A stretch of DNA of 46,072 bases from Escherichia phage Jk06: the sequence record DQ121662.1; one strand, written 5' to 3'. Shown one piece after another: positions 13 through 45,729 of the stretch. Every line of letters starts with the position of its first letter. Position 1 is the first letter of the stretch. The notes under the pieces are model-generated. The model was not told where the DNA came from, searched no databases, and saw only the letters and a list, made by a program, of their open reading frames with translations. Position numbers and translations under genes: made by a program.

Positions 13-76
13 AATAGCACGATTTGCTAAAGACTACCGCGGCAGCCTTTGCTATAGTTACTCCATCGAAACGAAA
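13..76 (+). promoter_or_regulatory. early promoter module (inverted repeat AATAGCAC-N4-TGCTAA, about 22 nt, TATAGT, CATCGAAACGAAA leader)
   Basis: IR at 13-30, TATAGT at 53-58, leader at 64-76, then RBS TAAGGAAT and ATG at 99. Same architecture recurs throughout the window. Confidence 0.55.
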
Positions 77-98
77 CATACTTACTAAGGAATACAAA

Positions 99-345
99 AT
101 GACTAACTTCATCAAATCAGCAATCATCGCATGCAGCAGTAATCATGACGGTAGGTTGTTCTTCTGGTCCGCGCCCTGACGGATGGTGTGCGACTCAGGC
201 GGGTGATGTTTGCGTAGCTAAGTGGAAAGGTGGTGTTATTGTTGCAGCTGGAGAGGTTGATATTCGTTATGCTGGCATTGAGTCAAAGGTTGGTGGAGGC
301 TACGGCGGCTCAGTTGCAGATCACGGCTCAAAGGAGTGGAAATAA
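99..345 (+). CDS. small hypothetical protein, frame apparently interrupted (ATG 99 frame stops at 179; ORF 145-345 continues in another frame)
   Basis: RBS-like TAAGGAAT 7 nt upstream of ATG 99; ORF 145-345 has no RBS of its own and ends in a TAATG overlap with the next gene. Confidence 0.3.
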
Positions 346-1307
346 TGCCTCAAGGTATCTTGATAGATTTGAATGACGGAAGGCCAGCAATGGAAATCAC
401 AGCTGGCTTGAGAGTTCCAGCCGTGACTGGTTCAATAAACACTAGCGGGTTAAGCTCACCAGCATCATCATGGGATTTCGGTCTGACTATGACTCCTGGC
501 TCAACAGCATTCTGCCTGCCAACTCAGGCTGTTTATGTTGATGCATATGATGTTATACCAGAAGTTTATTACATGAATGGGTTCTCGAAGGTTAATGATG
601 GGGTTGGAAGGATTACATTAAGTAACTTTAACGGCGCTAATGGTCGCATATTGCAGTTTGGCGGTCAGTGCTTTGAGATTTTACCAGCATCATCACAATC
701 AAGCCCCGGTGTCCTTGTTGAGAACTCGACTGACTTTACAGCGATATCAAGCAATTCCAGATTAATGACTGCTGCTTGGGTTGGTGGCATCCAGGTTAAT
801 GGCTCTGCATCATTGCCAGTTGCGGCATTCCTTTTGGTAAATGGGATAACCAAAACGGTATCACTTGAAAGTGATGGTAGTACGATATGGTGTAGGGATA
901 TAACGTACAATGGGATTGATGATGTTGCTGCAAGTACTTACGTTCAGTTAGTTATTTTCAATAATACACCTCCAGTAGCTGGTCCGGGTTTAACGATATC
1001 AAACAGCGCTGGGCAGATAGTTTTCTCTAGCGTCAGGAGGCCATTTGTTCTAAGTGGATTTATGCAGATTAATAATGGTTACCAGTCGGTGAATGGTGGG
1101 TTCTTCCCAATACTTAGATGCGGAGCGACAACTAGAGTCACTGGTGGATATAATAACTTACGATACAAGGGTGTTTGCATGTCTGGAGGTTCAGTTAGAG
1201 CCGTCCCAGGCACTGTTATAGGTAACTATTCAACTCAAACTGGCGCGCAATTCCCATTTGATACAAACATATCAATGGCACTTCCATTTATTCCCAACTT
1301 CTACTAA
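345..1307 (+). CDS. hypothetical Gly/Ser/Thr/Asn-rich protein (about 320 aa), fibre-like composition
   Basis: ORF 336-1307 in track; AAGGAG 8 nt upstream of ATG at 345; convergent with the tail module and ends at a hairpin terminator. Confidence 0.5.
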   Translation: MPQGILIDLNDGRPAMEITAGLRVPAVTGSINTSGLSSPASSWDFGLTMTPGSTAFCLPTQAVYVDAYDVIPEVYYMNGFSKVNDGVGRITLSNFNGANGRILQFGGQCFEILPASSQSSPGVLVENSTDFTAISSNSRLMTAAWVGGIQVNGSASLPVAAFLLVNGITKTVSLESDGSTIWCRDITYNGIDDVAASTYVQLVIFNNTPPVAGPGLTISNSAGQIVFSSVRRPFVLSGFMQINNGYQSVNGGFFPILRCGATTRVTGGYNNLRYKGVCMSGGSVRAVPGTVIGNYSTQTGAQFPFDTNISMALPFIPNFY

Positions 1308-1310
1308 AAG

Positions 1311-1334
1311 AAAAAGCCCCGAAAGGGGCTTAAT
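1311..1334. terminator. bidirectional intrinsic terminator hairpin AAGCCCCGAAAGGGGCTT
   Basis: Perfect GC-rich stem with GAAA loop at 1314-1331, A-run upstream and T-rich downstream, between convergent genes; identical hairpin at 42511-42528. Confidence 0.6.
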
Positions 1335-1337
1335 CAT

Positions 1338-19312: not shown

Positions 19313-19687
19313 TTACTGGAATTTTACTTCGAACTTGATTGTGTCGCATTTTACGCCATCCTCATCAAGTTGATCTACAGTATAGCGCACATTCCCGAAC
19401 TCAATCATGTCAACCTCATGCTCGTTTATGTAATATCTAAGCCTTGGCTTTTTATCACCATAAGAAGCTGCACCAGCGCAGTCAGTCTCAGTCTCGAAAC
19501 TCTGATCGCCATCAAGGAGTTCGAACTTGTAGAATGCTCCGTTTTCTACAGCTCGATAGCAACCATCGTCGTCGTAAGTTGAGATGTAGCCATCTCCATG
19601 ATCTTCAATGTCATATTGCTTTCCAACAGTGAAGCCAGGATGCTTTTCATCAGCGCATCCGGTAAACGTAGCTTTTAAAGTTTTCAT
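19313..19687 (-). CDS. hypothetical acidic Cys-containing protein (moron between terminase and portal)
   Basis: 124 aa ORF with its own promoter module (19717-19760) and terminator (19271-19297). Confidence 0.5.
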   Translation of the reverse strand: MKTLKATFTGCADEKHPGFTVGKQYDIEDHGDGYISTYDDDGCYRAVENGAFYKFELLDGDQSFETETDCAGAASYGDKKPRLRYYINEHEVDMIEFGNVRYTVDQLDEDGVKCDTIKFEVKFQ

Positions 19688-19716
19688 TCTATTAACCTTC
19701 TCGTTTGTGTGAGGTG

Positions 19717-19760
19717 ATTATAAGCCATCCATGGCGATTATCTTTACCAATTCGTGCTAT
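19717..19760 (-). promoter_or_regulatory. promoter module variant (IR-like ATAGCACGAATTGGTAA, 22 nt, TATAAT)
   Basis: Reverse complement of 19744-19760 matches the repeated IR motif with one change; perfect TATAAT at 19717-19722 on the minus strand. Confidence 0.5.
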
Positions 19761-23349: not shown

Positions 23350-23486
23350 TTCTTCTCCTCGCGCTCATGCCACATGTTCATCAACTCAAAGTACGCCATT
23401 ACTTCATCCCCATCTTTAGCCTCATCCATCATCTTTTTACACCATTCACTTGGCAACTCATCATATCCACACATTTAATCTTTCCT

Positions 23487-23551
23487 CGTCTCATTTCGAT
23501 AAAGTAATGGTAACGCATCCTTGCGATGGATGTTTAGCAATTTGTGCTATT
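23487..23551 (-). promoter_or_regulatory. early promoter module (IR plus leader variant TATCGAAATGAGA)
   Basis: IR TTTAGCAATTTGTGCTATT at 23533-23551 on the plus strand (reverse orientation), leader-like element and RBS before a small minus-strand ORF starting near 23475. Confidence 0.45.
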
Positions 23552-24386: not shown

Positions 24387-24617
24387 TTACTCGCTTCTAC
24401 GCCGACCAGTGTAACCCTTGCCATTCTCAATCCCCTCAGCCGCCTGAATAAGCGCCGCCGCCAGTTTGCGCGCTTGGTAGGCAGTATAGTGAGCAAGCGC
24501 ACATCCGTCGCCATGGTTACCGAAGTTGATATCAATACTCACGATGCCTTCGTAATGTACTGAGGTTGACACCTCTGTGCGAGCGCCTGCGAAATCTTCA
24601 ATAATTACAGCTTTCAT
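24387..24617 (-). CDS. hypothetical protein
   Basis: 76 aa ORF with an IR promoter-like motif at 24674-24692 and an RBS upstream. Confidence 0.4.
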   Translation of the reverse strand: MKAVIIEDFAGARTEVSTSVHYEGIVSIDINFGNHGDGCALAHYTAYQARKLAAALIQAAEGIENGKGYTGRRRSE

Positions 24618-24673
24618 GGTTATTTCCTCTTTGTTGTTGATAGGGTAATCATAGCTGACTACCCAATTTATTG

Positions 24674-24692
24674 TTTAGCAATTTGTGCTATA
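24674..24692 (-). promoter_or_regulatory. inverted-repeat promoter/operator motif copy
   Basis: TTTAGCAATTTGTGCTATA on the plus strand, i.e. AATAGCAC-N4-TGCTAA oriented with minus-strand transcription. Confidence 0.45.
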
Positions 24693-25235: not shown

Positions 25236-25777
25236 TAGTTAAACTCCTTGATCATCTCTTGATACATGCGGATAGCCTTAACTGCGCCAGTCAGCTCATC
25301 ACCTTCAAAATCCAGTACGTTAGGTGATAACTTAAGCAAGCGAGATTTGAACTTCTCAATAACAGCCCTCTCCTTTTCTTCTTTCTCTCTTTGTTTTGCT
25401 TTTGGCTCCTTAAGCCCCTCGGTGAGATGGATTAGCAGGTATTTATCAGCACCATCGCCATCATACTGGCGGGGCGTGGTATCTTCACCATCCGCATCAA
25501 TCCAGATGAATTGATAACGGGCGATATACTTAGCCTCACGCAACTCTCTCATTCGTGACAATGTATTATGAATGTATGAGTTCTTTAACTCACTCAACTT
25601 CCGCTCTCCAAGGTTGATAATATCCCCGGTTTTATCATCAGTCTCCATTTCCGGGTAATCATGACCTCTAATTTGTCGGTAAATATCTCGAACTGGAACC
25701 TTGAACTCCTTATCTTCTGACTGGAGTGCCTTTTTAGCCATGAATCGAATTACTTCACCTAAGGTCGTTTTGCTCAT
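25235..25777 (-). CDS. hypothetical protein (first gene of a leftward early operon)
   Basis: 180 aa ORF with RBS GAGAGGAA; TATAGT and CATCGAAACGAGG leader at about 25800-25830; stop overlaps the start of the next gene. Confidence 0.5.
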   Translation of the reverse strand: MSKTTLGEVIRFMAKKALQSEDKEFKVPVRDIYRQIRGHDYPEMETDDKTGDIINLGERKLSELKNSYIHNTLSRMRELREAKYIARYQFIWIDADGEDTTPRQYDGDGADKYLLIHLTEGLKEPKAKQREKEEKERAVIEKFKSRLLKLSPNVLDFEGDELTGAVKAIRMYQEMIKEFN

Positions 25778-26487
25778 GATGATTCCTCTCGTTGATTGTT
25801 GTTTGTTGCCTCGTTTCGATGAAATGACTATAGCAAAGATTTACGTGTCTATAAATGTATTTTTTTGTTTATTTTAAAATTGATACGCTTTTTTCCCTGC
25901 ATGCCGCATCGTTGCTGGGTGTGTACAGGCGTCTACGTGCGTCTACATATAGATGAGGGGGTTCTAGCTATATCCCCCTATATTTTCCTACAAGGTAGTA
26001 CAATTCCTACAGTGTAGGAATAAAAATAGAAATTTAAGCAAACCAACCTATATAGTAGCGTACAGATGATACGCTATATATACATAATACTATATATAAT
26101 AATAATAATAGTCTAAGTCCTTTATATATAAGGATATTTTAGTGTATATGGATTGTATCAAGGCGTATAAATTGTAAATGTGGATACGGTCGACAATCGG
26201 TAGACAGCGGACTACGCGTATATAAAAGAAGTCTCTCCGCGAGCGATAAAACCAACCAACTATTTGATCCAAACCTCCTTTCATTCAATCCATCCATCCA
26301 TCATTGCCAAACTGGCAACAATCAATAAACCTGTTGCACTCGATGAAATATTGCTTTATGTGTAATAGTCATGCTAATCATCGCAATGCCTGCAACAATC
26401 CATAAATCTGACGAATAGCACTTTTTGCTAAAGACAAATCCACCATGACTGGCTATAGTTTGCCAATCAACAGAGAGGAGAAGAAAC
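25778..26487. other. AT-rich intergenic region with iterons, palindromes and microsatellites between divergent early operons (candidate origin / control region)
   Basis: GCGTCTAC x2, palindrome ATTCCTACAGTGTAGGAAT, (ATA)n, TCCTTTATATATAAGGA, (CCAT)3, TTGCCAAACTGGCAA; no ORF of 60 aa or more. Confidence 0.5.
26414..26459 (+). promoter_or_regulatory. early promoter module (IR plus TATAGT)
   Basis: AATAGCACTTTTTGCTAA at 26414-26431, TATAGT at 26454-26459, RBS GAGGAG and ATG at 26488. Confidence 0.5.
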
Positions 26488-26706
26488 ATGAAAGCGATTA
26501 TTATCAACAACGAAATTAGGTACGACGAAGATTCAATGAGCCTTGCCGAACTTGGCTATCAGATTGGTGAGGAGGTGGAAGTTTACGAGATTGAAGGCTT
26601 CTACATGATGAGTTTAAAGGATCATGTATATGTTGATGGTACTCTTGCAATCTTTCAAGGTGAACAGTTTGTTGTTAGTAATGAAGAAATCAAGGTGGTA
26701 GCATGA
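26488..26706 (+). CDS. hypothetical protein
   Basis: 72 aa ORF with RBS; first gene of a rightward early operon. Confidence 0.45.
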   Translation: MKAIIINNEIRYDEDSMSLAELGYQIGEEVEVYEIEGFYMMSLKDHVYVDGTLAIFQGEQFVVSNEEIKVVA

Positions 26707-26942: not shown

Positions 26943-27095
26943 ATGCTAAAGCCATCTGACTTGAACTATTACGATCTAGAAACCATAGCCAAGTACAGCG
27001 GTAAGGGTTGGCCTGTTGGTGACTACTTCAAAGAAGATTTGATTGAGAGCTTCAACATCGTCCAGAAGGAAATTGCAAAAGCAGCAAAGAAATAG
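26943..27095 (+). CDS. hypothetical small protein (50 aa)
   Basis: ATG overlapping the upstream stop (TAAATG); not in the ORF track because it is shorter than 60 aa. Confidence 0.35.
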   Translation: MLKPSDLNYYDLETIAKYSGKGWPVGDYFKEDLIESFNIVQKEIAKAAKK

Positions 27096-27153
27096 CACGA
27101 ATTGCTAAAGCCCTTCGGGGCTTTTACTGTATATTCATCTCATCGAAACGAAA
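27091..27153 (+). promoter_or_regulatory. early promoter module (IR, terminator hairpin, TATATT, CATCGAAACGAAA leader)
   Basis: IR at 27091-27108, hairpin GCCCTTCGGGGC, TATATT at 27130-27135, leader at 27141-27153, ATG at 27174. Confidence 0.55.
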
Positions 27154-27173
27154 AGTACTAAAGGAAAATAATC

Positions 27174-27527
27174 ATGGCTACTACTATCACAAAGAATTGG
27201 GTTAGCAGTGATAACAAATTATTTCAAGCTCGCGTGAAGGATGGAGTTGAGCAGATTAAAGTCGATGGTAAATGGCAAAACCTAACTGAGCGGGGGCGTT
27301 ACATCAAGACTAAGACTCTTTATGTCACATTTGTTAACCATAAATCAGGAGTATCAAAGTCATTCAAGCAAGGTCGTCGCTATCAGGTAGAAATGACCGC
27401 ATCTCTTGGACAGAACGCTGGTAAAATATTTGATGAAGATGGTGACTCATGGACGCTGATTCGCTCTGAAGATGTTGGATTTACAACTGTTTGCGGAACT
27501 TATAAATTCGAGAGCCAATACAAATGA
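27174..27527 (+). CDS. hypothetical protein
   Basis: 117 aa ORF with RBS AAGGAAA. Confidence 0.45.
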   Translation: MATTITKNWVSSDNKLFQARVKDGVEQIKVDGKWQNLTERGRYIKTKTLYVTFVNHKSGVSKSFKQGRRYQVEMTASLGQNAGKIFDEDGDSWTLIRSEDVGFTTVCGTYKFESQYK

Positions 27528-27720: not shown

Positions 27721-27766
27721 AATAGCACTTTTTGCTAATGACACTACCCGCTTCGGCGGGTATATT
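27721..27766 (+). promoter_or_regulatory. early promoter module (IR, hairpin, TATATT)
   Basis: AATAGCACTTTTTGCTAA at 27721-27738, hairpin CCCGCTTCGGCGGG, TATATT at 27761-27766. Confidence 0.5.
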
Positions 27767-27803
27767 TGTTTCCATCAAGAAGACAAACACTAAGGTGAAC
27801 AAA

Positions 27804-27920
27804 ATGAAAAACATCTCTAAAGCAGTTGATGCGGTAATGGAACAAGTAATTAAGTTTGGTTTCTTTGGCTTCATGGGCGCAATCGCTGTTGTAGTTGGCA
27901 AATGTCTGGTTGGTCTTTAA
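27804..27920 (+). CDS. small hydrophobic protein (38 aa, single predicted transmembrane helix)
   Basis: ATG at 27804 with RBS TAAGGTG; sequence MKNISKAVDAVMEQVIKFGFFGFMGAIAVVVGKCLVGL. Confidence 0.35.
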   Translation: MKNISKAVDAVMEQVIKFGFFGFMGAIAVVVGKCLVGL

Positions 27921-27982
27921 TGGCACTTTTTGCTAAAGACCTTAACAACAAAAATTGATATATTCTCTTCATCGAAACGAAA
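27919..27982 (+). promoter_or_regulatory. early promoter module (IR, TATATT, CATCGAAACGAAA leader)
   Basis: IR at 27919-27936, TATATT at 27959-27964, leader at 27970-27982. Confidence 0.55.
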
Positions 27983-28002
27983 TACATTAAAAGGGCTAAA
28001 AA

Positions 28003-28182
28003 ATGGATATCATGACTACTATCGAAAACATCAAACCTGGCATGATGGTAAAAATGGGGCCGCTGTTCCGCAAAGTACTTCACGTTGACCTTAAGGAGAA
28101 TATCATCACCGTAATGATTAGAGGTCGCGCAAAGCTGTATCTTCCTCATAAAGGTCAGATGATTGAAGTTCGTATCAAGTAA
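28003..28182 (+). CDS. hypothetical small protein (59 aa)
   Basis: ATG at 28003 with RBS AAGGG; followed by hairpin AGCCCCTTCGGGGGC. Confidence 0.35.
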   Translation: MDIMTTIENIKPGMMVKMGPLFRKVLHVDLKENIITVMIRGRAKLYLPHKGQMIEVRIK

Positions 28183-31735: not shown

Positions 31736-31774
31736 TAACGCTCTCCAAGTGCCGCAAGGATTGCATAAGCGATT

Positions 31775-31921
31775 TCACTTTGCATTTTTCTCCGTAAGGT
31801 TAATAACATCAACCTTGATATCTTCTTCGCTTGATCCGTACGCTTGTGCTATTTTAAAAGTTTTACCAAAACCAACATCTTTAACTTCGATTTGTGCGTC
31901 TGATTGGGTGAACTTAGCCAT
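31775..31921 (-). CDS. hypothetical small protein (48 aa)
   Basis: ATG at 31921 downstream of promoter module 31924-32000. Confidence 0.35.
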   Translation of the reverse strand: MAKFTQSDAQIEVKDVGFGKTFKIAQAYGSSEEDIKVDVINLTEKNAK

Positions 31922-31923
31922 TT

Positions 31924-32000
31924 TCTATTTCCTATCTCGTTGTCGATGAAACAAATATAGCGCCTTTCGGCGCTATAGTCTTTAGCAAAAAGTGCTATTT
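31924..32000 (-). promoter_or_regulatory. early promoter module (IR, hairpin, TATATT, CATCGACAACGAG leader)
   Basis: IR TTTAGCAAAAAGTGCTATTT at 31981-32000 (reverse orientation); hairpin AGCGCCTTTCGGCGCT. Confidence 0.5.
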
Positions 32001-33011: not shown

Positions 33012-33013
33012 TC

Positions 33014-34140: not shown

Positions 34141-34224
34141 TCTATATTTTCCTATTAGCAGGTTATGAAGTACATGATTATAAAGGTTACTGGCACTGCC
34201 AGCAATGGTAGTAATGTTTTCATC

Positions 34225-34298
34225 TGAGCCGCCTCTCGTTTCGATGAACACACTATAAGCCATCCCTGGCGATATGTTTTAACAAAAAGTGCTATTTA
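34225..34298 (-). promoter_or_regulatory. early promoter module (IR variant TTAACA, TATAGT, CATCGAAACGAGAGG leader)
   Basis: IR at 34277-34298 on the plus strand (reverse orientation); a 20-codon hydrophobic mini-ORF lies in the leader. Confidence 0.5.
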
Positions 34299-34908
34299 AC
34301 TTCTTTTAGCCAGTAATCAAGAAACTCAGTTTCAAGCGCAGCAATTGCTGGAGAATACTCACTAGGCATCATCATATTGCAGCCAGGTGAGTAGTACATC
34401 AACTCAGCCTTACCAATCTCAATTTGCACCAGTACATCGAGGTAGTCCGGAGGAATCCACTCAGAGAAAGGAATCTTCCGATAAGGCTTCTCACCAAAAA
34501 ACACAACCTGATACTTACTCTCATCAAAATCTAGACCAGAGTAAATTCATTTCTTCGCACCTTTCTTAAATATCTTCTTACCTTCCTCGCGATACATTGC
34601 GAGGCTAGGCGTTGCTGGAACTCTTACATACTTGCGTGGCCGCTGGTTCATATAACTAAACTTCCCATTGAAAACTACAGATATGTCATCAATATCAAAG
34701 TATTTACCTATCATCTTGATGTCATCCTGCAATCCCGCCTCTCCACAATGCGCCCATACAGCGGCGCGTCCGCTTTCAACTATCATAGGCCGTAAGCCAT
34801 TTTTAAATATTCTCGAGCGCACATCCAGCAATATTCAGATCCAGTCTTAACTGCGTCATTTGCGAAAGACTGCGCAATCTCGAACATCTCTTTGTCTATA
34901 ATTTTCAT
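34292..34908 (-). CDS. hypothetical protein, reading frame interrupted (track ORFs 34547-34831 and 34292-34504 plus N-terminal fragment from ATG 34908)
   Basis: Three co-linear ORF fragments in different frames downstream of promoter module 34939-34984. Confidence 0.35.
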
Positions 34909-34938
34909 CTCTTAACCCTCTCATTTGCTGATGTAATT

Positions 34939-34984
34939 AATATAATCCATCCTTGTATTTTAGTTTTAACAAAAAGTGCTATTT
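34939..34984 (-). promoter_or_regulatory. early promoter module (IR variant plus TATATT)
   Basis: IR TTTTAACAAAAAGTGCTATTT at 34964-34984; TATATT on the minus strand at 34939-34944. Confidence 0.5.
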
Positions 34985-35592: not shown

Positions 35593-35786
35593 TATTCTGA
35601 CACCTCATCAAATTTTTCGCCGAATGCGTTTTTAACAGTCTCTAAATCATCTTTGTATGTTGGGCTAACTTCGAATGAGTAACCGTCTCCATCATCAAGA
35701 ATATAACCCTCAGGGGTGATTGCTAATTCATATTCATAACCAGTTTTGCGTGACTTGTACAGCTTTTCAGTGTAGATAGTAGTCAT
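35592..35786 (-). CDS. hypothetical protein (start at MTTIYTEK; track N-terminus lies in the promoter)
   Basis: Promoter module 35801-35863 sits inside the track ORF 35592-35906; the internal ATG at 35786 has a purine-rich RBS. Confidence 0.4.
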   Translation of the reverse strand: MTTIYTEKLYKSRKTGYEYELAITPEGYILDDGDGYSFEVSPTYKDDLETVKNAFGEKFDEVSE

Positions 35787-35800
35787 TTTGTTTCTCTCTC

Positions 35801-35863
35801 TTCGTTTCGATGAAGTAACTATATCGCATCCTTGCGAAATCTCTTTAGCAATTCGTGCTATTT
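35801..35863 (-). promoter_or_regulatory. early promoter module (IR, TATAGT, CATCGAAACGAA leader)
   Basis: IR at 35844-35863, TATAGT on the minus strand at 35818-35823, leader at 35801-35812. Confidence 0.55.
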
Positions 35864-36230: not shown

Positions 36231-36232
36231 CA

Positions 36233-38178
36233 TTAGAACTCCTTATTAGCAATATTATCGCCACCTTTAGCGGTCTTGCGGTGAGTTACCCTCTTAGGAG
36301 CATGGATGTACTGCGAATACTCCATAATCTTGCGAGCATTGCGATATGCAGCCATATATCGCTTAGCGTTCATGTCGACTACGTGACCTTTAATTCCATT
36401 GTTCAACCAGAGTGTTTTACATACTCGATGGTCAGACTCTACGAAGAAAACCTCATGAGCTTTAAATGTCCCACCCATGCCATCATCAAGGATGTAGTTG
36501 TAGATGATTCCTGATTGGTTCTTTGTTAGCCCAACCTTAAAGTCAACAACATCAAACCAGTCGTTCTTGCGGTAATGTTTGCCGCTTAACTTGAGATTTG
36601 GATCAAGCAAAGTGCAATCGCAACCCCTACAAATCTTAGCTGCAACGTCATTCTGAACTCCGCAGCCTTTAACGATAACCTTTCCGGTTCGTGGGTCTTT
36701 CTGGTCTTCACATGTGCGACTAACCCAGAAATATTCGCAGCGATTATTATTCTCATCAATATGCATGCAACGTCGAGCAAAGAAGCTGTTCTCTGTTCCG
36801 CATACTGGACACTGCTTAGTCTCCTTGCCATTATCTTTCGTAGCTGATATTGAGCCTGCTCAAGAATTGGATTGAAGTACAATGATGCCATAGAGTCCAT
36901 CGTTCCTGCGAAGTCCAGTACCAAATGGTCATTCTTGACCATTCCTTTATCTTCATGGAGCTTCTTAAGCTTACGCATTCCTCGACCAAGTAGCTGAACC
37001 AGGAGCGTAAGGCTACCAATCTTACGCAGAATAACGCTTGTATCCCATGTAGGCACATTTACGCCAGTGGTTAGCGCCTGAACCTGAAAGCAATATTTAA
37101 TCTCCCCGCTAAAGCACTTATCAAGCAACTCCTTGCGCTGCTTCTCGCCAGTCTTTCCAGTTATAATGCAGAACTTTTCACCTTCAGGAAGGTAACTTGC
37201 GGCTTCGTGGCAATGGCGCTCACCTGCGCATGTTACCAGAACTCCATTCCTGTCTTTCGCGGCAAGCCATACTTTCTTCATTATCTCCGCTGTCATTGTT
37301 CCAGATGCCTGAATCTTTTTATCCATGGCTTCAAGCTGGGCTTTAGTGTAATCCTGAACACCATCTTCAGATGATGCATCAAACTCTGACAGGTCGTAAC
37401 CAACGCCATCAGTAGCACCAAAGTTTGTCGGAACCACGGAACCGAACTCGACCAGGTAGTTTGTATCGATATTTGTGACCGTCTCACGCCAAAATCCCAA
37501 CTCCTTTTTATTTTCAACAACTATTGGCGTAGTTCCACGGAAAGGAGAACCAGTCAGTCCAAAGATACGAAGATTCTTGCCATACTTAGCACGGCAGCGC
37601 TCCATTAAAGTCAGTATGATTACCGTATACTGGCTACGTCCCTTATCTGATGCCTGTTGCGCAGTCTCATTGTTATCTAGAGCCTCAGCCACATCCTGGT
37701 CATCAACATGGTGACACTCATCAATAGCAACTACCGCAGGGCAGAAATCGCCAAGTGACCTCTCAAGCCCGCCAACTACTGTACCCTCAGAGCCAACCAC
37801 CACAGGGAAATAAGATGATTTTATTCCAAGCCCAGAGCAATAGATGGAGTTAGGAACCCCGTAATCAGAAATCTCAGAAGCATTCTGGCTAACCAGCTCT
37901 GCCTGACGAGCAAGAACAAGCATAGGCAAGCCAAGCTCAGAGCAACGCTTAGCAACCATACCAAAAACCAGAGTCTTACCAGCAGAAACTGAAGCCATTG
38001 CGATAAATGGATGCTCATAGCGACTAATGCGCTTTGCAATCTCATTGTACATAACACACTGATAGCTATACGGAACCATACCGTTAGAAGAGGTGAATTT
38101 AGTTTGAATCTCTTTAATCTTATCTTCGCCCAATTCTTCAATCTGTTTTTGTATTGTTTTCAATCGGTTTTCCATAAT
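36233..38178 (-). CDS. SF2 DNA helicase with C-terminal zinc-ribbon region, frame interrupted near 36800-36840; start taken at MENRLKTIQ
   Basis: Motif I SVSAGKT, motif II DECHH; Cys-rich C-terminal continuation CPVCGTEN...CRGCDC in ORF 36233-36766; the first 16 track codons overlap a promoter module. Confidence 0.75.
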
Positions 38179-38189
38179 ATCAAATGCCT

Positions 38190-38256
38190 TTAATGTTTGT
38201 TCGATTGACGATATAATAACAGCCATCTAAACCAATGTTTAACAAAAAGTGCTATT
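38190..38256 (-). promoter_or_regulatory. early promoter module upstream of helicase
   Basis: IR TTTAACAAAAAGTGCTATT at 38238-38256 (reverse orientation), then TATATC and CAATCGAACAAAC leader before the internal ATG at 38178. Confidence 0.45.
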
Positions 38257-38267
38257 GAGGTGAGAAA

Positions 38268-38741
38268 ATGGATTCAATTGACAAGCGTACTCTTAATGGT
38301 AACAACGGAACAGTTCGCACAGAAGACAAGAAGCCGCGTAAGCGTCCATCAGGTTACTATGTACTAAAGGATGAAGTGAGAGCAGGATTAAGGTCGCGCC
38401 TTGAGATTGTATTGGACTTCTACGGCAGCAAGGCCAATCTAGCTAAGCAGCTAAAGGTTACGCGCCAGGCTGTAGAAGAATGGTGTAAGCGGGGAATGAT
38501 TTCAGCTCGCGGCGCACAGCTTGCGCATAATCGATATAAGCGAACTGGCGAGGGGTTCAGGGCTACATTCTGCCGACCTGATTTACAGTTCGACGGTAAC
38601 GGCAAGCCTCTAACACTGCGATGCAAGAAGCGTCAGATGCTTCGAGTTGTTACAGAAGCTGAGCTAGCAACCAAGCCGCAGCGTAAATCATGGCGAAAGG
38701 TTAAGAAAGAAAGAGAAGAAGCACGAAAAGCTAAAGAGTAA
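38268..38741 (+). CDS. HTH DNA-binding protein (Cro/YdaS-like transcriptional regulator) with basic C-terminal tail
   Basis: Helix-turn-helix-like segment LAKQLKVTRQAVEEWCKRGMIS; RBS GAGGTGAG; 157 aa. Confidence 0.55.
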   Translation: MDSIDKRTLNGNNGTVRTEDKKPRKRPSGYYVLKDEVRAGLRSRLEIVLDFYGSKANLAKQLKVTRQAVEEWCKRGMISARGAQLAHNRYKRTGEGFRATFCRPDLQFDGNGKPLTLRCKKRQMLRVVTEAELATKPQRKSWRKVKKEREEARKAKE

Positions 38742-38747
38742 AAATTA

Positions 38748-38780
38748 AGGTTGTGCCATAATCGGTACAACCTTTTTATT
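38748..38780 (+). terminator. hairpin plus T-run
   Basis: AGGTTGTGCCATAATCGGTACAACCT followed by TTTTT. Confidence 0.45.
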
Positions 38781-38793
38781 GGATTAAATATAA

Positions 38794-39717
38794 ATGAATT
38801 ACGACAAGAATGAAGTAATACCTAAAATGGCTGGATTGTGGAAATCATTTTATGCAAAGGAGCTTGGTTGGAATGATAGACACCTTAGCAAGAAGCACGG
38901 GCCGTGCCCTTATTGCTTTGGTACTGACAGATTCAGGTTTACAGACGAAATAGGAAGCGAAAAAGGTAATGGGGCCGCAGTTTGCTCTAAGTGCGGCAGT
39001 GACTCAGGAATAGGCTGGGTTATGAAATGTTCCGGCCTTAGATTTGCGGAAGCTATAAATTTACTTGGCGACTGGCTTAATTTGACTCCCGTCGAAATCA
39101 TAGTGAAGGCAAACAAAGCAGCGAGCCGAGTTCAGAGATATAACTTTGGCGCTCAGGCATCCATTGAATCAATCGAGAAGGTAATCTCTCGCACCAAGTC
39201 TGTAGAAATGACACAGCTTACGAGATTTGAAGCAATTATTACTGAACGGGAATACAAAATAGGAATAAAGGGGTCTGGAGAAGAAATTATAGCCGAGCAA
39301 TGCTTTATGGTTTACGAGGATGGTTTATCAGATGAGCCTTGTAACGTAAAGTTTATAGATGAAGAGGGTAATGAGTCATATCTCGCAAAAGACTACACTC
39401 GCGGCTCGGTTGTTCCGGTAAGTAAATGTAGTGATGGCGCTATCTACCTCACTGTTGGCTGGATTAACGCACTACATGTATCGGCATGCACAAAAAGGAC
39501 AACTTACGACTGCCTAACTCACCACAACTTAGAAATGGTTGCTTATGAACTCAGGAATAAAGAGTGCAGGATAGCTTGCTTAGCTGATGAAAAGGAGTCG
39601 CTTTATGTTGCTGATGATAGAGGTCTAAAAGTCGTAATACCTAAAGGTGGCAATTTCAAGATGGGGCTTGAAAGAAGGTTATATAACCCGCAAGATCTGA
39701 TAGATAAGCATTCATAG
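38794..39717 (+). CDS. DNA primase (zinc-ribbon plus Toprim-like)
   Basis: N-terminal Zn-binding pattern CPYCFGTDRFRF...CSKCGSDSG typical of phage/plasmid primases; 307 aa. Confidence 0.7.
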   Translation: MNYDKNEVIPKMAGLWKSFYAKELGWNDRHLSKKHGPCPYCFGTDRFRFTDEIGSEKGNGAAVCSKCGSDSGIGWVMKCSGLRFAEAINLLGDWLNLTPVEIIVKANKAASRVQRYNFGAQASIESIEKVISRTKSVEMTQLTRFEAIITEREYKIGIKGSGEEIIAEQCFMVYEDGLSDEPCNVKFIDEEGNESYLAKDYTRGSVVPVSKCSDGAIYLTVGWINALHVSACTKRTTYDCLTHHNLEMVAYELRNKECRIACLADEKESLYVADDRGLKVVIPKGGNFKMGLERRLYNPQDLIDKHS

Positions 39718-39721
39718 CAAT

Positions 39722-39746
39722 CACCCTCTTCGGAGGGTTTTTTATT
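39722..39746 (+). terminator. intrinsic terminator
   Basis: ACCCTCTTCGGAGGGT hairpin followed by TTTTTT. Confidence 0.6.
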
Positions 39747-39795
39747 GCATTTAATCTGATACAATAGGTTTCATCTATCAAATAGGAGAAATAAC

Positions 39796-42012: not shown

Positions 42013-42025
42013 CTAAGGGACTGGT

Positions 42026-42508: not shown

Positions 42509-42536
42509 AAAAGCCCCGAAAGGGGCTTTATCTTTT
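42506..42536. terminator. bidirectional intrinsic terminator AAGCCCCGAAAGGGGCTT
   Basis: Same hairpin as 1314-1331, flanked by an A-run and a T-rich tract, between convergent genes. Confidence 0.6.
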
Positions 42537-42539
42537 GCA

Positions 42540-42962
42540 TTAAAACGGAATATCCTCTTCATCACTAAATCGGCTTTGTTGCTGCGGCTGCTGTCTCTGT
42601 TGCTGTTGAGCTTGTTGTCGCTGCTGCTGCTGTTCTGATTCACCTCCTCGCTGACTAAACATCAATCGAGGATTCTGCAACTCAAGCGTAATATATGTCT
42701 TGCCATTATGTTCGCGCTCATTAACCGCTAATGAATCGCCGCTCACAGAGATAACTTTTCCTTCCTGGAAGGCTTCATCATACCAACTAATCTGCGCCTC
42801 ACTAGCAAACATCGTAATCCGGTAATTGGTATACTTACGCTCGCCATCTTTAGTCTTGTATGATTCGCTTATTTCGATAGCGTACATTTTCCAGTTGCCT
42901 TTGGCGTTCTGACCATCTTTAGTGAAAGGAGCCTTACGAATTACGCCTGTTAAAGTATGCAT
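42540..42962 (-). CDS. ssb: single-stranded DNA-binding protein
   Basis: 140 aa; Gln-rich linker and acidic C-terminus ending DEEDIPF, the classic bacterial/phage SSB tail. Confidence 0.8.
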   Translation of the reverse strand: MHTLTGVIRKAPFTKDGQNAKGNWKMYAIEISESYKTKDGERKYTNYRITMFASEAQISWYDEAFQEGKVISVSGDSLAVNEREHNGKTYITLELQNPRLMFSQRGGESEQQQQRQQAQQQQRQQPQQQSRFSDEEDIPF

Positions 42963-43009
42963 TTTATATTCTCTTCTCGTTTGATTTTGGGGCCGAAGCC
43001 CCGTTTAGT

Positions 43010-43658
43010 TTAGAACTGCTCGATTGATTGTGATTCTACTACTTCATTAGTTGCGTTTGCAACTTTTTTAGCGACTTCCTTTGGCTTAGCTGGGTTGAAG
43101 CCACTTGCGGAAGCCATTTTGATCTCTGCTTGTTTATCTATTATCGCTTTCTCTACTATACCCCACGTTGCCGTGTCAGCTTGTGATTTGCATGATTTGT
43201 AGATTTCGATAAGCTCTTCTCGAGTTTCTGCCTTCTCAATATCGCGCTTCCAGTCCTTGACGCTCTTAACTGACCATCTGCGCATCATCGTCAGACTGAC
43301 TAATTCCCAAAGCCGCCGCTAGTGAGTAACGCCGAGCGTATGTAAATGCAGATCCTACTCCTTGCGGGTCTTTCTTAACGATTGGCATAATCATGAAGAA
43401 GCTAACCCACTCGCCAGAAACGTGATAGAGAGTCGTCTCTACGTTAAGATTGTCAGCAGTTGATGTTTCTAACATGCTCTGCATAATCATTAAGTCGTTA
43501 TCATCAAGTGCTGGGATTACAGCCTCCAGCATGGAATCAAGTGTTGCGTATCTATTCTTTAGGTGACTGTTCTGCTTGTCTCTTGCTGCCTTCGCAAATC
43601 CTGTGCGAGCTTTAAATAGTGCCTGTAAAACTGTTTTGTTACTCTCTGAAGTCTTCAT
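43010..43658 (-). CDS. putative single-strand annealing protein (ERF-like), two overlapping ORFs, possibly one interrupted gene
   Basis: ORF 43266-43658 has a [14 protein letters not shown]-type motif; ORF 43010-43288 overlaps by 23 nt; promoter module upstream. Confidence 0.4.
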
Positions 43659-43670
43659 TTCTATCTCTCT

Positions 43671-43733
43671 TTGTTGTCGATGAGGTAACTATACCCCATC
43701 GATTTAATACCGTTTTAGCTATTCGTGCTATCT
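43671..43733 (-). promoter_or_regulatory. early promoter module (IR, TATAGT, CATCGACAACAAAG leader)
   Basis: IR at 43714-43733, TATAGT on the minus strand at 43688-43693, leader at 43671-43682. Confidence 0.55.
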
Positions 43734-43845
43734 TCGTACTTCTTCATCTCATACTCAGGAACTTGCAGTTCCATCTCTGTTTCGCCAAATCCGTAACCAG
43801 GCCAAATATCAAGTTTCTTGCATTGCTTGTATGTGGATAGGGCGC

Positions 43846-44682
43846 TCATGTATTGCAATCTACCAACCTTAAGTGCTCTTTTGTTATCGTGTAGCACATT
43901 GGAAGGAATGGGCTTTTCTTTTCCTGGCAAAGAAGCTGAACAACAACTCGACGCTTCTCATTAAAGGCGCGAACAAACAAATCATGCTGAAGCGCCATTT
44001 TTAGCAAATAACCATGCTTGAAGGCCAATCTCCCAAATCCAGATGGAGATGCGTCGCTAGTCGTCTTGTAGTCACGGATATAAACTACATCATCAACGAC
44101 ATCGACATGGTCAAGACGAACCTTAACGCCGCACTCGTTAATCTCACCGAAGATTGATAACTCTCGCTGAGCGGTTTTACTGTTCACTATCGCATTGTAT
44201 GCAGGAATGCCACACAGCACCTCTCGCATCGCATGTACTGTGTCAAAGTCTTTAGCTGATACAATCTCGCGACCGTTCGCTTTAACCTCGATAGAGCGCT
44301 GAATATCCCACCATACGTTAAGTGATTCACCGGCTCAGCGCCAGAATCTCCATTAATTCTGGATAATCCTTACCAGATGTTCCAGCAATACCCATCGACT
44401 TCAACCGAGTTGCCAAAGCAGTCTGCTAGTAATCAGATCCTCAAACTCTTCTTGCGCTGGCTGGCGATAGTAAGTCGCATCGAATACAGAGTTTTCAAGA
44501 ATAACCGTGTGGGCTAATGTACCGAACTTTAACGCCTTATTGCTATCATCATGCTCTGCAAACTTATAAGCAGCGGGGCAAGTTGAGAAGATGTGAGCCA
44601 GACCAGAGCCAGACACATGGTCTGACTCCTTGTGGTAGGCTTCGTTGGTTAACTCGTCGCTAGTGTAAACCTTGAAGCTCAT
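43846..44682 (-). CDS. PD-(D/E)xK family exonuclease, reading frame interrupted at least twice
   Basis: Fragments 44401-44682, 43846-44229 and 43715-43930; motif VRLDHVDVVDDVVYIRDYKTT; adjacent to the annealing protein and SSB genes. Confidence 0.5.
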
Positions 44683-44685
44683 GAT

Positions 44686-44880
44686 TTATTCCTTCACCTT
44701 AATAATCTTCATTACTGAACCAAGCTCCTCATCTGTCACGTGGGCGTATTCAATAGCTTCCTGCTTTGTATCAAATCTTGCCGCCTCTGATTTATTGCTT
44801 GTGTAACCTGAGCCATCTACACAGTAGTAACATGTGCCGAAAATAGGATTGTTTCGCTCTTGAATAATGAAGTATGCCAT
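44686..44880 (-). CDS. hypothetical Cys-containing small protein
   Basis: 64 aa ORF with RBS. Confidence 0.35.
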   Translation of the reverse strand: MAYFIIQERNNPIFGTCYYCVDGSGYTSNKSEAARFDTKQEAIEYAHVTDEELGSVMKIIKVKE

Positions 44881-45018
44881 TTCTATATCTCTCTTTGTTT
44901 GTGTGGTTTAACTATGCCATCCGTAGCTAAGCTTATCCAATTGGTTTTGCCTATTATTTCAACTTAATAATCTCGCTATTCTTATCTACCAGATTAGAGA
45001 TCAACTCATCCTTGTCGT

Positions 45019-45582
45019 TTAACTTCTGGCAAAGAATTTCACACTGAGATTGATATGAGTAACCATCTCAAGAGCATCAAAGAGCCTGCTAGATTCAAAT
45101 TTAACCTTATAAAGCTCATCGTGAATCTCTTCACCATTTGAAGCCTTATCAATATACTTATAAATAATCTTCTCTAGCTTGTAAACCTCATCTTCGGCGC
45201 GATTGCGTGCCGATAGCTCCTTGTTGGTTTGCTGCTTCTCTTTTAATACCAGATCGTAAGATACCATCTTGGCCATGTGCTCTTTGAGTAACTTGTTCTC
45301 CCGCTCAAGGTGAAGCCAGCGGTCAATGATTCTGGCAGCAATTTCCTGGCTATAACCAGCCATCAAAATCATCGTTTCCCTGAATTTTAGGTTATACATT
45401 GGTAAATCCTTGTTCTGGCTTGATTTGTAGGAGGATACAAATTTGTATTCTCCTCCATCACCAAACTGCCTATTAAGCATATCCCTAATATCCCTTAGTA
45501 CTATAAAGTGTTCCTTTCCAGTTAATTCAGCAATCTCAAGGCTACTCATGGTTACGTTTTCATCAATATTCATCAGATTCAT
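45019..45582 (-). CDS. Rha-family phage regulatory protein (antirepressor-like)
   Basis: N-terminal motif SSLEIAELTGKEHFIVLRDIRDML typical of Rha regulators; coiled-coil C-terminal half. Confidence 0.6.
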   Translation of the reverse strand: MNLMNIDENVTMSSLEIAELTGKEHFIVLRDIRDMLNRQFGDGGEYKFVSSYKSSQNKDLPMYNLKFRETMILMAGYSQEIAARIIDRWLHLERENKLLKEHMAKMVSYDLVLKEKQQTNKELSARNRAEDEVYKLEKIIYKYIDKASNGEEIHDELYKVKFESSRLFDALEMVTHINLSVKFFARS

Positions 45583-45684
45583 ATCTATTCTCCCTCGTTA
45601 CCGCTCCCGAGTTTGAGGAGCGATTTCATTTGTATCTACCATTTTTTGGTAGATAGACGCAGCACCATTGCTGCCTGTAAGTGC

Positions 45685-45729
45685 ACTATACCCAATCATG
45701 TCGTATACGTTTTGATTATTCGTGCTATT
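45685..45729 (-). promoter_or_regulatory. promoter module variant upstream of Rha-like gene
   Basis: IR-like TTGATTATTCGTGCTATTT at 45712-45729; TATAGT on the minus strand at 45685-45690; about 100 nt leader with a hairpin. Confidence 0.4.

Follow-up and report, generated by a model that had tools for sequence, protein, structure and literature searches.

The repeated promoter module of Escherichia phage Jk06 carries, upstream of its -10, an element that by its sequence would be a nearly perfect site for MarA, SoxS and Rob, the activators of stress response and antibiotic resistance in the host, and this suggests that the phage ties its early transcription to these proteins. Almost all early genes appear to start from this one module. 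On balance, we favour the reading that each copy is a class II, activator-dependent sigma70 early promoter served by a host activator of the AraC/XylS family.

The window, that is, the whole stretch of 46,072 nucleotides that was analysed, is a complete, circularly permuted genome of the Rogue1/AKS96-like type within the Drexlerviridae. The phage is a virulent, T1-like coliphage. The repeat as such was already known: the 21-nt direct repeats of the related phage TLS (aaATAGCACnnnTTGnTAAAA) are the same element, are intergenic and transcription-oriented about 76 nt ahead of start codons, have stated counterparts in T1, Rtp and Rogue1, and were left by their authors undecided between stoperators, enhancer sites and UP-like elements (PMC11447400). 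However, that work made no link to the marbox, to a fixed -10 distance or to an absent -35, and the identity of the repeat as a marbox seems to be the new part. Genome papers on T1-like phages report "too few promoters" together with an unexplained repeat. To our knowledge, the mechanism by which transcription starts in these phages has never been worked out.

Copies and anatomy of the module

The original prediction listed 15 copies of a composite promoter module, and all of them could be confirmed. TAGCA-N5-TGCTA, with at most one mismatch, has 15 matches in the window against 1.96 expected, a number that no shuffle reached; 14 of these are listed copies, and the copy at 45712, the right arm of which is degenerate (ATAGCACGAATAATCAAA), was recognized by the remainder of its module, which is kept. 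The N4 of the prediction, read literally, corresponds to AATAGCAC-N4-TGCTAA, and arms of 5 nt with N6 between them have zero matches in the window. The remaining match, at 40298, is intragenic, has no -10, was judged to be due to chance and was rejected as a module. The primase gene is preceded by a 16th module, absent from the earlier list, at 38718-38762.

The oriented alignment bears out the composite of box, spacer, -10 and leader, and every copy points, as predicted, towards its downstream gene. The box is 20 nt long, ATAGCAC-N4-TG(C/T)TAAA(G/A)N, and its distance to the -10 (TATAGT, TATATT or TATAAT) is 18 nt in 8 copies, 19 nt in 6 and 17 nt in 1; 6 nt further on come a (C)ATCGA(A/C)AACGA leader, the ribosome-binding site and the ATG. 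The leader CATCGAAACGA occurs exactly six times, and seven times at up to one mismatch, where 0.75 are expected. Five exact copies are in listed modules and the sixth belongs to a related, box-less promoter (25775..25880, minus strand), where an A/T-rich stretch (25880-25856) takes the place of the box and is followed by a -35 TTTATA (25855-25850), 17 nt, a TGn, TATAGT (25832-25827), the leader (25821-25811) and an ATG at 25777.

On the plus strand, the module at 14..101 joins the box ATAGCACGATTTGCTAAAGA (14-33; 16.6 bits, all bit values being scores on the ChIP-derived marbox matrix described below) to TATAGT (53-58) with TGn before it; the predicted +1 is A65 of CATCGAAACGA, the ATG is at 99, and the module would drive a small ORF and the genes of a phage lipoprotein (145-345) and a DUF6453 membrane protein (336-1307). 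At 26415..26490 are found the box ATAGCACTTTTTGCTAAAGA (26415-26434; 17.0 bits), a weak -35 AAGACA, TATAGT (26454-26459), a predicted +1 at 26466 and an ATG at 26488. The module at 27092..27176 has the box ATAGCACGAATTGCTAAAGC (27092-27111; 17.0 bits), a spacer containing the GC hairpin GCCCTTCGGGGC and a T-run, TATATT (27130-27135), a predicted +1 at 27142 within CATCGAAACGA and an ATG at 27174. At 27722..27806 the B half of the box ATAGCACTTTTTGCTAATGA (27722-27741; 9.6 bits) is weakened, but there is a -35 ATGACA; a terminator hairpin (27745-27762) lies in the spacer, TATATT at 27761-27766 and the ATG at 27804. The module at 27920..28005, with the box ATGGCACTTTTTGCTAAAGA (27920-27939; 17.0 bits), TATATT (27959-27964), a predicted +1 at 27971 in CATCGAAACGA and an ATG at 28003, would drive a small ORF followed by the DUF3987 helicase operon. 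In the newly found module (38718..38796), the box GAAGCACGAAAAGCTAAAGA (38718-38737; 14.4 bits) doubles as the final codons (ARKAKE) of the Cro-like regulator gene and is followed after 19 nt by CATAAT (38757-38762), which lies within a hairpin (38747-38774); the primase ATG is at 38794.

The remaining modules are on the minus strand. The one at 19685..19760, with the box ATAGCACGAATTGGTAAAGA (19760-19741; 13.6 bits), TATAAT (19722-19717), a predicted +1 at 19710 and an ATG at 19687, serves a 124-aa ORF (19313-19687) situated between the terL and portal segments. Two modules carry the box ATAGCACAAATTGCTAAACA at 17.8 bits: 23472..23550 (box 23550-23531, TACCAT 23512-23507, predicted +1 23500, ATG 23474) and 24615..24691 (box 24691-24672, TATGAT 24653-24648, predicted +1 24641, ATG 24617). 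At 31919..31998, the box ATAGCACTTTTTGCTAAAGA (31998-31979; 17.0 bits) is followed by a terminator hairpin (31977-31956) the T-run of which overlaps the -10, TATATT (31959-31954); the predicted +1 is 31947 and the ATG 31921. The box ATAGCACTTTTTGTTAAAAC, at 15.3 bits, is found both at 34221..34295 (box 34295-34276, TATAGT 34257-34252, predicted +1 34245 in CATCGAAACGA, ATG 34223), upstream of the DNA-repair exonuclease gene, and at 34906..34982 (box 34982-34963, TATATT 34944-34939, predicted +1 34932, ATG 34908). The module at 35784..35861 contains the box ATAGCACGAATTGCTAAAGA (35861-35842; 17.0 bits), TATAGT (35823-35818), a predicted +1 at 35811 in CATCGAAACGA and an ATG at 35786.

At 38173..38255, the box ATAGCACTTTTTGTTAAACA (38255-38236; 15.3 bits), a -35 TAAACA, a TGn and TATTAT (38218-38213) precede a predicted +1 at 38206 and the ATG of an ATP-dependent helicase gene at 38175. 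The Cro-like regulator gene (ATG 38268) is divergent from this gene and has the same box, in reverse, in its 5' leader; the -10 elements of the two directions overlap. For the ORF at 36586..38226, the AKS96 annotation places the start at 38175, while the ORF itself begins upstream of the predicted +1, an example of the artefactual ORF starts that had been suspected of running into the modules. The last two modules are 43656..43731, upstream of the Erf-type annealing protein gene, with the box ATAGCACGAATAGCTAAAAC (43731-43712; 15.5 bits), TATAGT (43693-43688), a predicted +1 at 43681 and an ATG at 43658, and 45676..45728, upstream of the Rha-like gene (45019-45582), with the degenerate box ATAGCACGAATAATCAAAAC (45728-45709; 10.4 bits), TATAGT (45690-45685) and a predicted +1 at about 45678.

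The box, the marbox and class II geometry

The published marbox consensus GCAHWWWWTGYYAAA (PMC6900184) has 8 perfect matches in the window where 0.07 are expected, and 14 at up to one mismatch against 1.6 expected; a second, looser consensus, gcannwwntgnnaaa (PMC12052159), has 13 perfect matches against 1.0 expected. [quoted passage not shown] Eight phage boxes score above 97-99% of the real MarA/SoxS/Rob/RamA ChIP-seq sites, and two tie with the best SoxS ChIP site; two copies, among them that of the module at 23472..23550, have a core identical to this site, which lies on pSLT and is bound by SoxS in vivo. At positions -3 and -2, which are outside the matrix, A (86%) and T (78%) prevail, which are the AY of the 20-bp marbox.

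The upstream element had been predicted to resemble a protein-binding site, and on this we agree; its reading as the symmetric site of a phage-encoded dimeric regulator is not borne out. C4, T8, A14, A15 and A-3 are strongly conserved and break the two-fold symmetry, the palindrome covers only 5+5 nt, and the invariant G1 is mirrored by C in 64% and T in 31%. As is characteristic of a marbox, the site is asymmetric and has a single orientation relative to the gene in all copies. Since the conservation is asymmetric and the whole box equals the marbox of monomeric activators, a symmetric dimer site is improbable, and the inverted repeat appears to be a by-product of the marbox.

As the original prediction had noted, the distance between TTGCTA and the -10 is too large for a sigma70 -35. 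A -35 with at least four of six matches is present in 3 of the 12 listed modules of the scanned range, and the information at the -35 positions is approximately 0, while the -10 reads TAtaaT; the modules thus combine, by sequence, the lack of a recognizable -35 with a -10 of functional type, as class II promoters do. The absence of a -35 is typical of such promoters, and sigma region 4 is occluded by Rob. The 15-mer of micF has its centre at -41, counted from the annotated RNA start, and its 20-mer is 18 bp away from the -10; in the phage copies the gap is 18 or 19 bp and the boxes, counted from the predicted starts, are centred at -39 to -41. Among 108 boxes from six T1-like genomes, a -10 is found at gap 18 in 59, at 17 in 9 and at 19 in 7. 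Of the two published definitions of class II, one asks for a forward box over the -35 with its centre at -36 to -55 and the other for a box 30-42 bp upstream of the start (PMC12052159 for one); the phage boxes fall within both, the start sites being predicted. The geometry therefore appears to be class II as in micF, with a forward box that precedes a good -10 by 18±1 bp and lies over a missing -35.

Since G occupies -14 in 78% of modules next to a strong -10, an extended -10 could drive firing with no dedicated factor, the box serving as an UP-like contact for RNA polymerase. The TLS authors propose UP-like elements (PMC11447400), a Keio screen found no transcription-factor requirement (PMC7229145), and the box-less promoter (25827-25832) has the same core and leader with an A/T-rich tract in the place of the box. 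Even so, we regard this explanation as distinctly unlikely. The consensus UP element is an A/T-rich tract at -40 to -60 with which the alpha C-terminal domain of RNA polymerase makes contact, and such a tract is seen in the box-less promoter and not in the box, where invariant positions include G and C (GCAC and TG; G1, C2, C4, G10) and the spacer variants TTTT, GAAT and AAAT are interchangeable. The top rank of the box among real MarA/SoxS/Rob sites would also be left unexplained.

Conservation in other phages and the phage-encoded candidates

The same box and architecture are found in T1, ISF001, Rogue1, AKS96, one Klebsiella Webervirus and Vc1, with 21 box matches in T1 (0.7 expected), 28 in ISF001 (0.73 expected) and none in Lambda. 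The major-capsid promoter has a reversed box in its spacer in T1, Vc1 and, apparently, ISF001. Four complete modules, leader included, are present in the T4-type phage Lw1 (Straboviridae), which also shares a small gene with this module-bearing group; the modules have moved between phage families.

We also consider it unlikely, if worth weighing, that the box is an operator or activator site of a phage protein, foremost the Cro-like regulator (38268-38741), which, expressed first and from a box-less promoter of its own, would activate the box promoters and autoregulate through the box in its leader. Its gene is the sole early gene without a forward box, and all T1-like genomes examined have a reversed box at most about 30 bp upstream of the start codon of this gene; an HTH dimer would fit TAGCA/TGCTA arms with 10 bp between them, and the regulator occurs in 832 phage records. 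Boxes are, in addition, kept in T1-like phages whose recorded hosts are Vibrio cholerae and Pseudomonas aeruginosa, species from which, as far as we know, MarA and SoxS are absent; these host labels are doubtful, since T1-like phages have also been deposited as "Campylobacter phages". However, the protein has a single-HTH Cro fold, and no residue is invariant in the HTH helices (residues 54-74) of its homologues, while the box is the same in all phages of that comparison, across subfamilies. An operator for a dimeric Cro/cI-type regulator would be conserved symmetrically and be read by residues that co-vary with it or equal it in conservation, and neither feature was found; Lw1 has its four modules with no homologue of the regulator (best E 0.57, the T1 control giving 1e-62). 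The marbox match and the class II spacing would be left to coincidence. The Rha-like protein, likewise proposed as a binder, fits poorly, as the annotation of T1, a phage with 21 boxes, lists no gene of Rha or anti-repressor type. The phage encodes no AraC-type protein of its own: a six-frame search of the window with MarA, the query being verified against 1BL0, found no MarA-like ORF (best E 0.58).

The modules double as compact gene boundaries. Boxes are intergenic save for an overlap with the final 4-17 nt of the upstream ORF, so that stop codons of upstream genes fall within the box, and terminator hairpins are nested in the spacer of some modules, a clear stem-loop being present in 4 of the 16. 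Together with the modules and small gene common to the unrelated phage Lw1, the separate module of the 124-aa ORF, which is unmatched in AKS96 and Rogue1, and the precedent of PeSL cassettes (PMC2839356, PMC4122927), this could mean that the repeats are chiefly recombination linkers or boundary cassettes, like T4-type PeSLs or L5 stoperators, conserved for shuffling or for stopping transcription. We find this highly improbable as the main explanation: it accounts neither for the fixed 18±1 bp to the -10 nor for the marbox identity, and no repressor is known in the virulent phages of this group. It is also compatible with activation by the host rather than an alternative to it.

Proposed activation by the host and comparison with known systems

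Host activation would rest on a good -10, often with G at -14, essentially no -35 and, instead, a forward near-consensus marbox centred at about -40. A monomer of the host AraC/XylS-family activator would bind GCAC (A site) and TG(C/T)TAAA (B site) and, by touching sigma70 region 4 and the alpha C-terminal domain of RNA polymerase in the manner of the solved activation complex of Rob and micF, would recruit the host enzyme. The predicted first nucleotide of the transcript is the A of cATCGAAACGA, which would give a short A/C-rich leader. In unstressed cells the likeliest activator would be Rob, a constitutively abundant protein whose expression is constitutive and high (PMC9178005); under antibiotic or oxidative stress, MarA or SoxS would join in.

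Against host activation, MarA and SoxS are scarce without stress, and most Rob is reported to stay sequestered and inactive as long as inducers are lacking. T1-like phages grow well in plain medium. The boxes of phages recorded on V. cholerae and P. aeruginosa also count against it, subject to the doubt about these host labels. In a Keio screen with the T1-like phage LL5, no more than eight genes proved to be required, and the main text of that paper contains none of the words rob, marA and soxS (PMC7229145), so that probably no single one of the three is essential. In view of this screen, host activation would have to involve redundancy or substantial basal promoter activity; with a G at -14 and a good -10, the promoters could also fire independently of an activator.

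A wider programme for the Drexlerviridae can be imagined, in which Mar/Sox/Rob would act as a master switch: forward boxes would turn on all early units, the same protein would keep late functions silent from reversed boxes (those in the leader of the Cro-like regulator gene and in the capsid promoter spacer of T1, Vc1 and, apparently, ISF001), and replication, by multiplying 15-28 high-affinity sites per genome, would titrate the activator and flip early to late. We hold this programme to be doubtful. If true, infection efficiency would vary with host stress such as bile salts, salicylate, oxidants or mar-type resistance mutations.

The class II marbox reading would supply a concrete mechanism and the promoters of most early operons. 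T1-like phages are ubiquitous wherever E. coli and Klebsiella are grown or treated, and MarA, SoxS and Rob, which are responsive to bile, salicylate and oxidants, are drivers of multidrug efflux. If the reading is true, the activity of a whole phage family is tied to these proteins, which would bear on phage-antibiotic combinations, phage behaviour in the gut and the host quality of mar-type resistant clinical strains, and would provide synthetic biology with very strong natural marboxes. If it is wrong, a defined promoter family of precise architecture still remains, with better annotation for hundreds of Drexlerviridae genomes.

The closest known systems are the class II marbox promoters of the mar-sox-rob regulon (micF type), which have the same asymmetric 15-20 bp sequence, forward over a poor -35 and 18-19 bp from the -10, and for which Rob and SoxS activation complexes have been solved. 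In contrast, the sites described here, known from sequence, are on a virulent phage, number 16 per 46 kb, are nearer consensus than most chromosomal sites and are joined to a common -10, leader, stop codons and terminators. PeSLs (PMC2839356, PMC4122927) are likewise repeated cassettes of early promoter and stem-loop beside small variable ORFs and appear mobile by recombination, and the modules described here also occur in a T4-type phage, Lw1; however, PeSLs have near-consensus -35 and -10 elements, an A/T-rich upstream region and the stem-loop upstream of the promoter, whereas here a marbox replaces the -35 and the hairpin, if any, lies between box and -10. The L5 stoperators, which the TLS authors named, are also many asymmetric, transcription-oriented intergenic sites, but they are bound by a phage repressor with no tie to a -10, while the boxes described here belong to virulent phages and lie 18±1 bp from their -10.

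Copies and layout of the promoter module

Over an 8-kb stretch, the window shares 99% identity with the Escherichia phages vB_EcoS_AKS96 and Rogue1 (Drexlerviridae, Rogunavirus). The reverse complement of AKS96 is collinear with the window, whose base 46072 joins base 1; the window is therefore the whole of a circularly permuted T1-like genome, and the promoter modules numbered 15 (from 45728, minus strand) and 1 (from 14, plus strand) diverge within one intergenic region. A tRNA-Arg gene with anticodon CCU (22138-22213, minus strand) is present in related phages too. Most long genes show at least one frame change relative to their AKS96 orthologues (17985-21314, 33017-34140, 36236-38175, 39796-42505, 43013-43658, 7298-10352 and 28223-29805), with frame counts of three for terL, two for the portal, at least three for the tape measure and two for Erf; both helicases, the exonuclease and the tail fibre are frame-shifted as well. 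These changes look like indel errors of the sequence, not biology.

When the window was scanned for TAGCA-N5-TGCTA with at most one mismatch, 15 matches were obtained against approximately two expected. The original prediction had listed about 15 copies of an oriented inverted repeat, and this was confirmed: 14 of the 15 matches are copies on that list, the listed copy at 45712 is degenerate yet real, and all copies align once oriented on the downstream gene. The match at 40298 lies inside the tail-fibre gene and was discarded as chance, and an arm spacing of six (TAGCA-N6-TGCTA) gave zero matches, the real gap being 5 nt. The copies share the consensus ATAGCAC-N4-TG(C/T)TAAA(G/A)N (the 20-nt upstream element, hereafter called the box), a spacer, a TATAGT-like hexamer, 6 nt, (C)ATCGA(A/C)AACGA, a ribosome-binding site and ATG, the spacer measuring 18 nt in eight copies, 19 nt in six and 17 nt in one. 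The leader CATCGAAACGA is enriched, with seven matches (at most one mismatch) against 0.75 expected; judged from the sequence, it is doubtful as a hairpin or sigma-dependent pause site, since its stem would have only 3 bp and a -10-like element would lack the final T.

A 16th module, absent from the earlier list, lies on the plus strand upstream of the primase gene (box 38718-38737; CATAAT 38757-38762). At 38718-38741 the box, GCACGAAAAGCTAAAGAG, also encodes the C-terminal tail ARKAKE of a Cro-like regulator, and several of the long-tailed homologues of this protein carry comparable A-x-KAK(E) peptides at their ends; the box DNA may thus constrain the protein sequence. On the minus strand, the promoter at 25775-25880 has the same TGn-TATAGT core (-10 at 25827-25832), an exact CATCGAAACGA leader and a TTTATA -35, with an A/T-rich UP-like tract where the box would be; it is a candidate for an early promoter independent of an activator.

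As an observation, the repeat is already published. The Rogue1 and AKS96 papers relied on resemblance to TTGACA-N17-TATAAT alone to find promoters and leave the repeat unmentioned; the 2024 re-annotation of phage TLS reports a 21-nt direct repeat, aaATAGCACnnnTTGnTAAAA, in 21 copies that share the orientation of transcription and lie ~76 nt ahead of start codons, mentions similar repeats in T1, Rtp and Rogue1, and offers a stoperator, an enhancer-binding site or an UP-like element as possible functions (PMC11447400).

Fit of the box to a class II marbox

The box matches the marbox, to which MarA, SoxS and Rob, activators of the AraC/XylS family, bind as monomers. The marbox consensus, 5'-GCAHWWWWTGYYAAA-3' (PMC6900184), has eight perfect matches in the window against 0.07 expected, and 14 against 1.6 with at most one mismatch, while the looser gcannwwntgnnaaa (PMC12052159) has 13 perfect matches against 1.0. 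With a matrix built from 87 Salmonella ChIP-seq sites for MarA, SoxS, Rob or RamA, 16 window matches reached at least 14 bits (0.85 expected); eight phage boxes score above 97-99% of the genuine sites, and the box core shared by 23533 and 24674, GCACAAATTGCTAAA, equals the best SoxS site of the same table (PMC10268841). The micF box in the Rob crystal reads TGACAGCACTGAATGTCAAAG (PMC8279559). Matrix matches inside genes (671, 4760, 16509, 16725 and 24951) were treated as chance because no -10 lies at 17-20 nt. A literature search for marboxes in phage promoters or for T1 start-site mapping gave nothing relevant, and, within the literature searched, the assignment of this element to the consensus class II marboxes appears to be new.

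The three positions preceding GCAC, which lie outside the matrix, are A in 86%, T in 78% and A in 84% of 58 modules from four phages. These bases agree with the 'AYn' that opens the 20-bp consensus AYnGCACnnWnnRYYAAAYn, reportedly given by Martin et al. in 1999. The inverted repeat itself comprises only five plus five complementary bases; its symmetry is broken at the conserved C4, T8, A14, A15 and A-3 of the box, and the position that mirrors the invariant G1 is C in 64% of the same modules and T in 31%. Since conservation is asymmetric and GCA...TGC is an inherent part of the marbox consensus, the palindrome is a by-product of an asymmetric site, which also explains the constant single orientation of the element.

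The gap between repeat and TATA hexamer had been predicted to be too long for a sigma70 -35, and this holds: TTGCTA stands 23-24 bp from the -10 and was rejected as a -35. In class II promoters of the mar-sox-rob regulon the box is forward and overlaps the -35, and these promoters 'lack a recognizable -35'; the box centre is placed at -36 to -55 in one paper, and in another the motif lies 30-42 bp ahead of the start. At micF of E. coli K-12 the 15-mer is centred at -41 from the annotated RNA start and 18 bp separate the end of the 20-mer from the -10 TAGAAT; the window boxes end 18 or 19 bp before the -10 (17 in one copy), and their centres, relative to the predicted starts, fall at -39 to -41. 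Among 108 distinct boxes from six T1-like genomes, 59 are followed by a -10-like hexamer at a gap of 18, nine at 17 and seven at 19, and such hexamers are almost absent at other gaps. A -35 with 4/6 matches occurs in only three of 12 listed modules (20 kb scanned), and the -35 columns of the module alignment hold almost zero information; conservation is seen in the -10, at -14 (G, 78%), at -1 (pyrimidine, 92%) and at +1 (A, 78%).

The cryo-EM structure of Rob at micF shows a single monomer that reads GCAC and CAAA; it touches both the alpha C-terminal domain and region 4 of sigma, and keeps the latter off the -35 (PMC9178005). A host MarA, SoxS or Rob monomer on the phage box would recruit polymerase as Rob does at micF, and the modules have, at the level of sequence, the anatomy that this mechanism requires.

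The AKS96 record annotates a promoter at 22079-22113 as 'TTGACA(N23)TATAAT with 3 bp mismatch', a spacing unusable by sigma70, and this entry may correspond to a box-type promoter. Sigma70 consensus-like promoters in 26000-45990 number 32, below shuffled sequence (45.6 ± 6.5).

The same box and architecture are found in T1, where 21 matrix matches reach 14 bits or more (0.70 expected), and in Shigella phage ISF001, with 28 (0.73 expected); Rogue1 has 18 matrix matches, AKS96 17 and Vibrio phage Vc1 12 (1.3 expected), and a Klebsiella Webervirus has 15 consensus matches against 1.2 expected. The box is thus invariant across several widely diverged Drexlerviridae lineages. Perfect consensus matches number 4-13 in each T1-like genome and 0 in lambda. 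Among the matches listed in an IMG/VR scan, multi-copy contigs were 46-52 kb T1-like genomes with one exception: Lw1, a T4-type phage of 176 kb (Straboviridae), together with its RB16/RB43 relatives; contigs with a single match, which have no -10 or leader, were set aside as chance, and real modules among these matches were confined to T1-likes and Lw1/RB16/RB43-type phages.

Candidate readers of the box

The original prediction of a promoter module with a regulator site stands, while the phage-encoded binders proposed with it, among them a Cro-like HTH protein (38268-38741) and a Rha-like protein (45019-45582), are unsupported. In Pfam these candidates yielded only a weak match to Cro/YdaS and one to Rha, with zero matches for the two exonuclease fragments. 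The Cro-like protein is conserved in 832 phage records, and its model (pLDDT 89) has one HTH of the Cro type rather than a dual HTH and is closest in structure to Xfaso-1 Cro and N15 Cro. Across 41 aligned homologues the HTH helices (54-74) contain zero invariant residues, the invariant segments being an N-terminal DKRxxNGNNGTxR and a C-terminal FCRPDLxFDxNG; a variable reading helix is ill-suited to an invariant site, and the protein is therefore doubtful as the reader. For the Rha-like protein, the T1 annotation has zero Rha-type or anti-repressor genes. A phage-encoded AraC-type activator was rejected after a six-frame profile search of the window, which found no MarA/SoxS/Rob-like ORF (best E 0.58; MarA query checked against PDB 1BL0).

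Lw1 bears on this question. Its full genome has four complete modules with a aCATCGAAACGA leader (10292, 10908, 91964 and 92336), but the Cro-like regulator has no homologue in it (best E 0.57, versus 1e-62 in the T1 control) and no MarA-like ORF was found, which favours a host-supplied reader. In two of these modules the gap between box and -10 is 29 nt, one extra helical turn, with the box centre near -51 and a hairpin between; a forward marbox at -52 is reported to have activated a MarA-dependent promoter derivative (PMC6900184).

We consider it somewhat probable that host MarA, SoxS or Rob act on the box, and a phage-encoded reader unlikely. MarA and SoxS are scarce in unstressed cells, and Rob, constitutively abundant (PMC9178005), is described as mostly sequestered until an inducer binds; both points count against a host factor. 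A Keio screen with the T1-like phage LL5 identified eight required genes, and rob, marA and soxS are unmentioned in its main text (PMC7229145), so probably no single activator is essential. Boxes in Vc1 and 'Pseudomonas phage Motto', recorded on non-enteric hosts, would argue, if the labels are true, for a reader carried by the phage or for an upstream element sensed by polymerase only, the latter being quite improbable in our estimate. Host labels are unreliable for T1-likes, which affects the host-factor argument. T1-like genomes are deposited under Campylobacter (MG065641 and others), Vibrio cholerae (NC_054898.2) and Pseudomonas aeruginosa (ON843697.1), and these labels may be wrong.

Boxes also occur in reverse. 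One always lies within ~30 bp upstream of the start codon of the Cro-like regulator (window 38205-38268; also T1, ISF001, Webervirus, Vc1 and Motto), where the regulator promoter and the helicase promoter have overlapping -10 elements (38212-38218); box occupancy may couple the two genes inversely. At the major-capsid promoter of T1 (15062-15089) and Vc1 (5706-5733), read as TTGACG/TTGAAC-N16-TATTAT/TATATT, a reversed box exactly fills the spacer, and ISF001 has a box at ~28813 with a similar flank, apparently in the same arrangement; the feature is absent from the window (14600-14760). The factor reading the box might also repress this late promoter.

Modules at gene boundaries

The stop codon of the upstream gene often falls within the box, as the TAG of aTAGcac (19757, 23547, 27095, 27923 and 34292) or the TAA of gcTAAa (24688, 31995, 35858 and 43728), so that gene ends overlap the predicted activator site of the next promoter. 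Terminator-like GC hairpins stand between box and -10 at 27745-27762, 27110-27125 and 38747-38774 (plus strand) and 31977-31956 (minus strand); their T-run overlaps the -10, one unit's terminator being built into the next promoter. A 124-aa ORF (19313-19687, minus strand) with a weak DUF7244 match is flanked by terL and portal segments and has its own module; no counterpart was matched in AKS96 or Rogue1, and it is like a moron insertion. The ORF behind one Lw1 module has 43% identity to a small early protein of ISF001. Taken together, the stop codons, the nested hairpins and these two ORFs indicate that the modules behave as portable gene-boundary cassettes too.

If correct, the class II marbox reading would supply a precise mechanism that is cheap to test. 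The PeSLs of T4-type phages are analogous gene-boundary cassettes; however, the modules differ from them in promoter type, and identity with PeSLs is doubtful on this ground (PMC2839356, PMC4122927).
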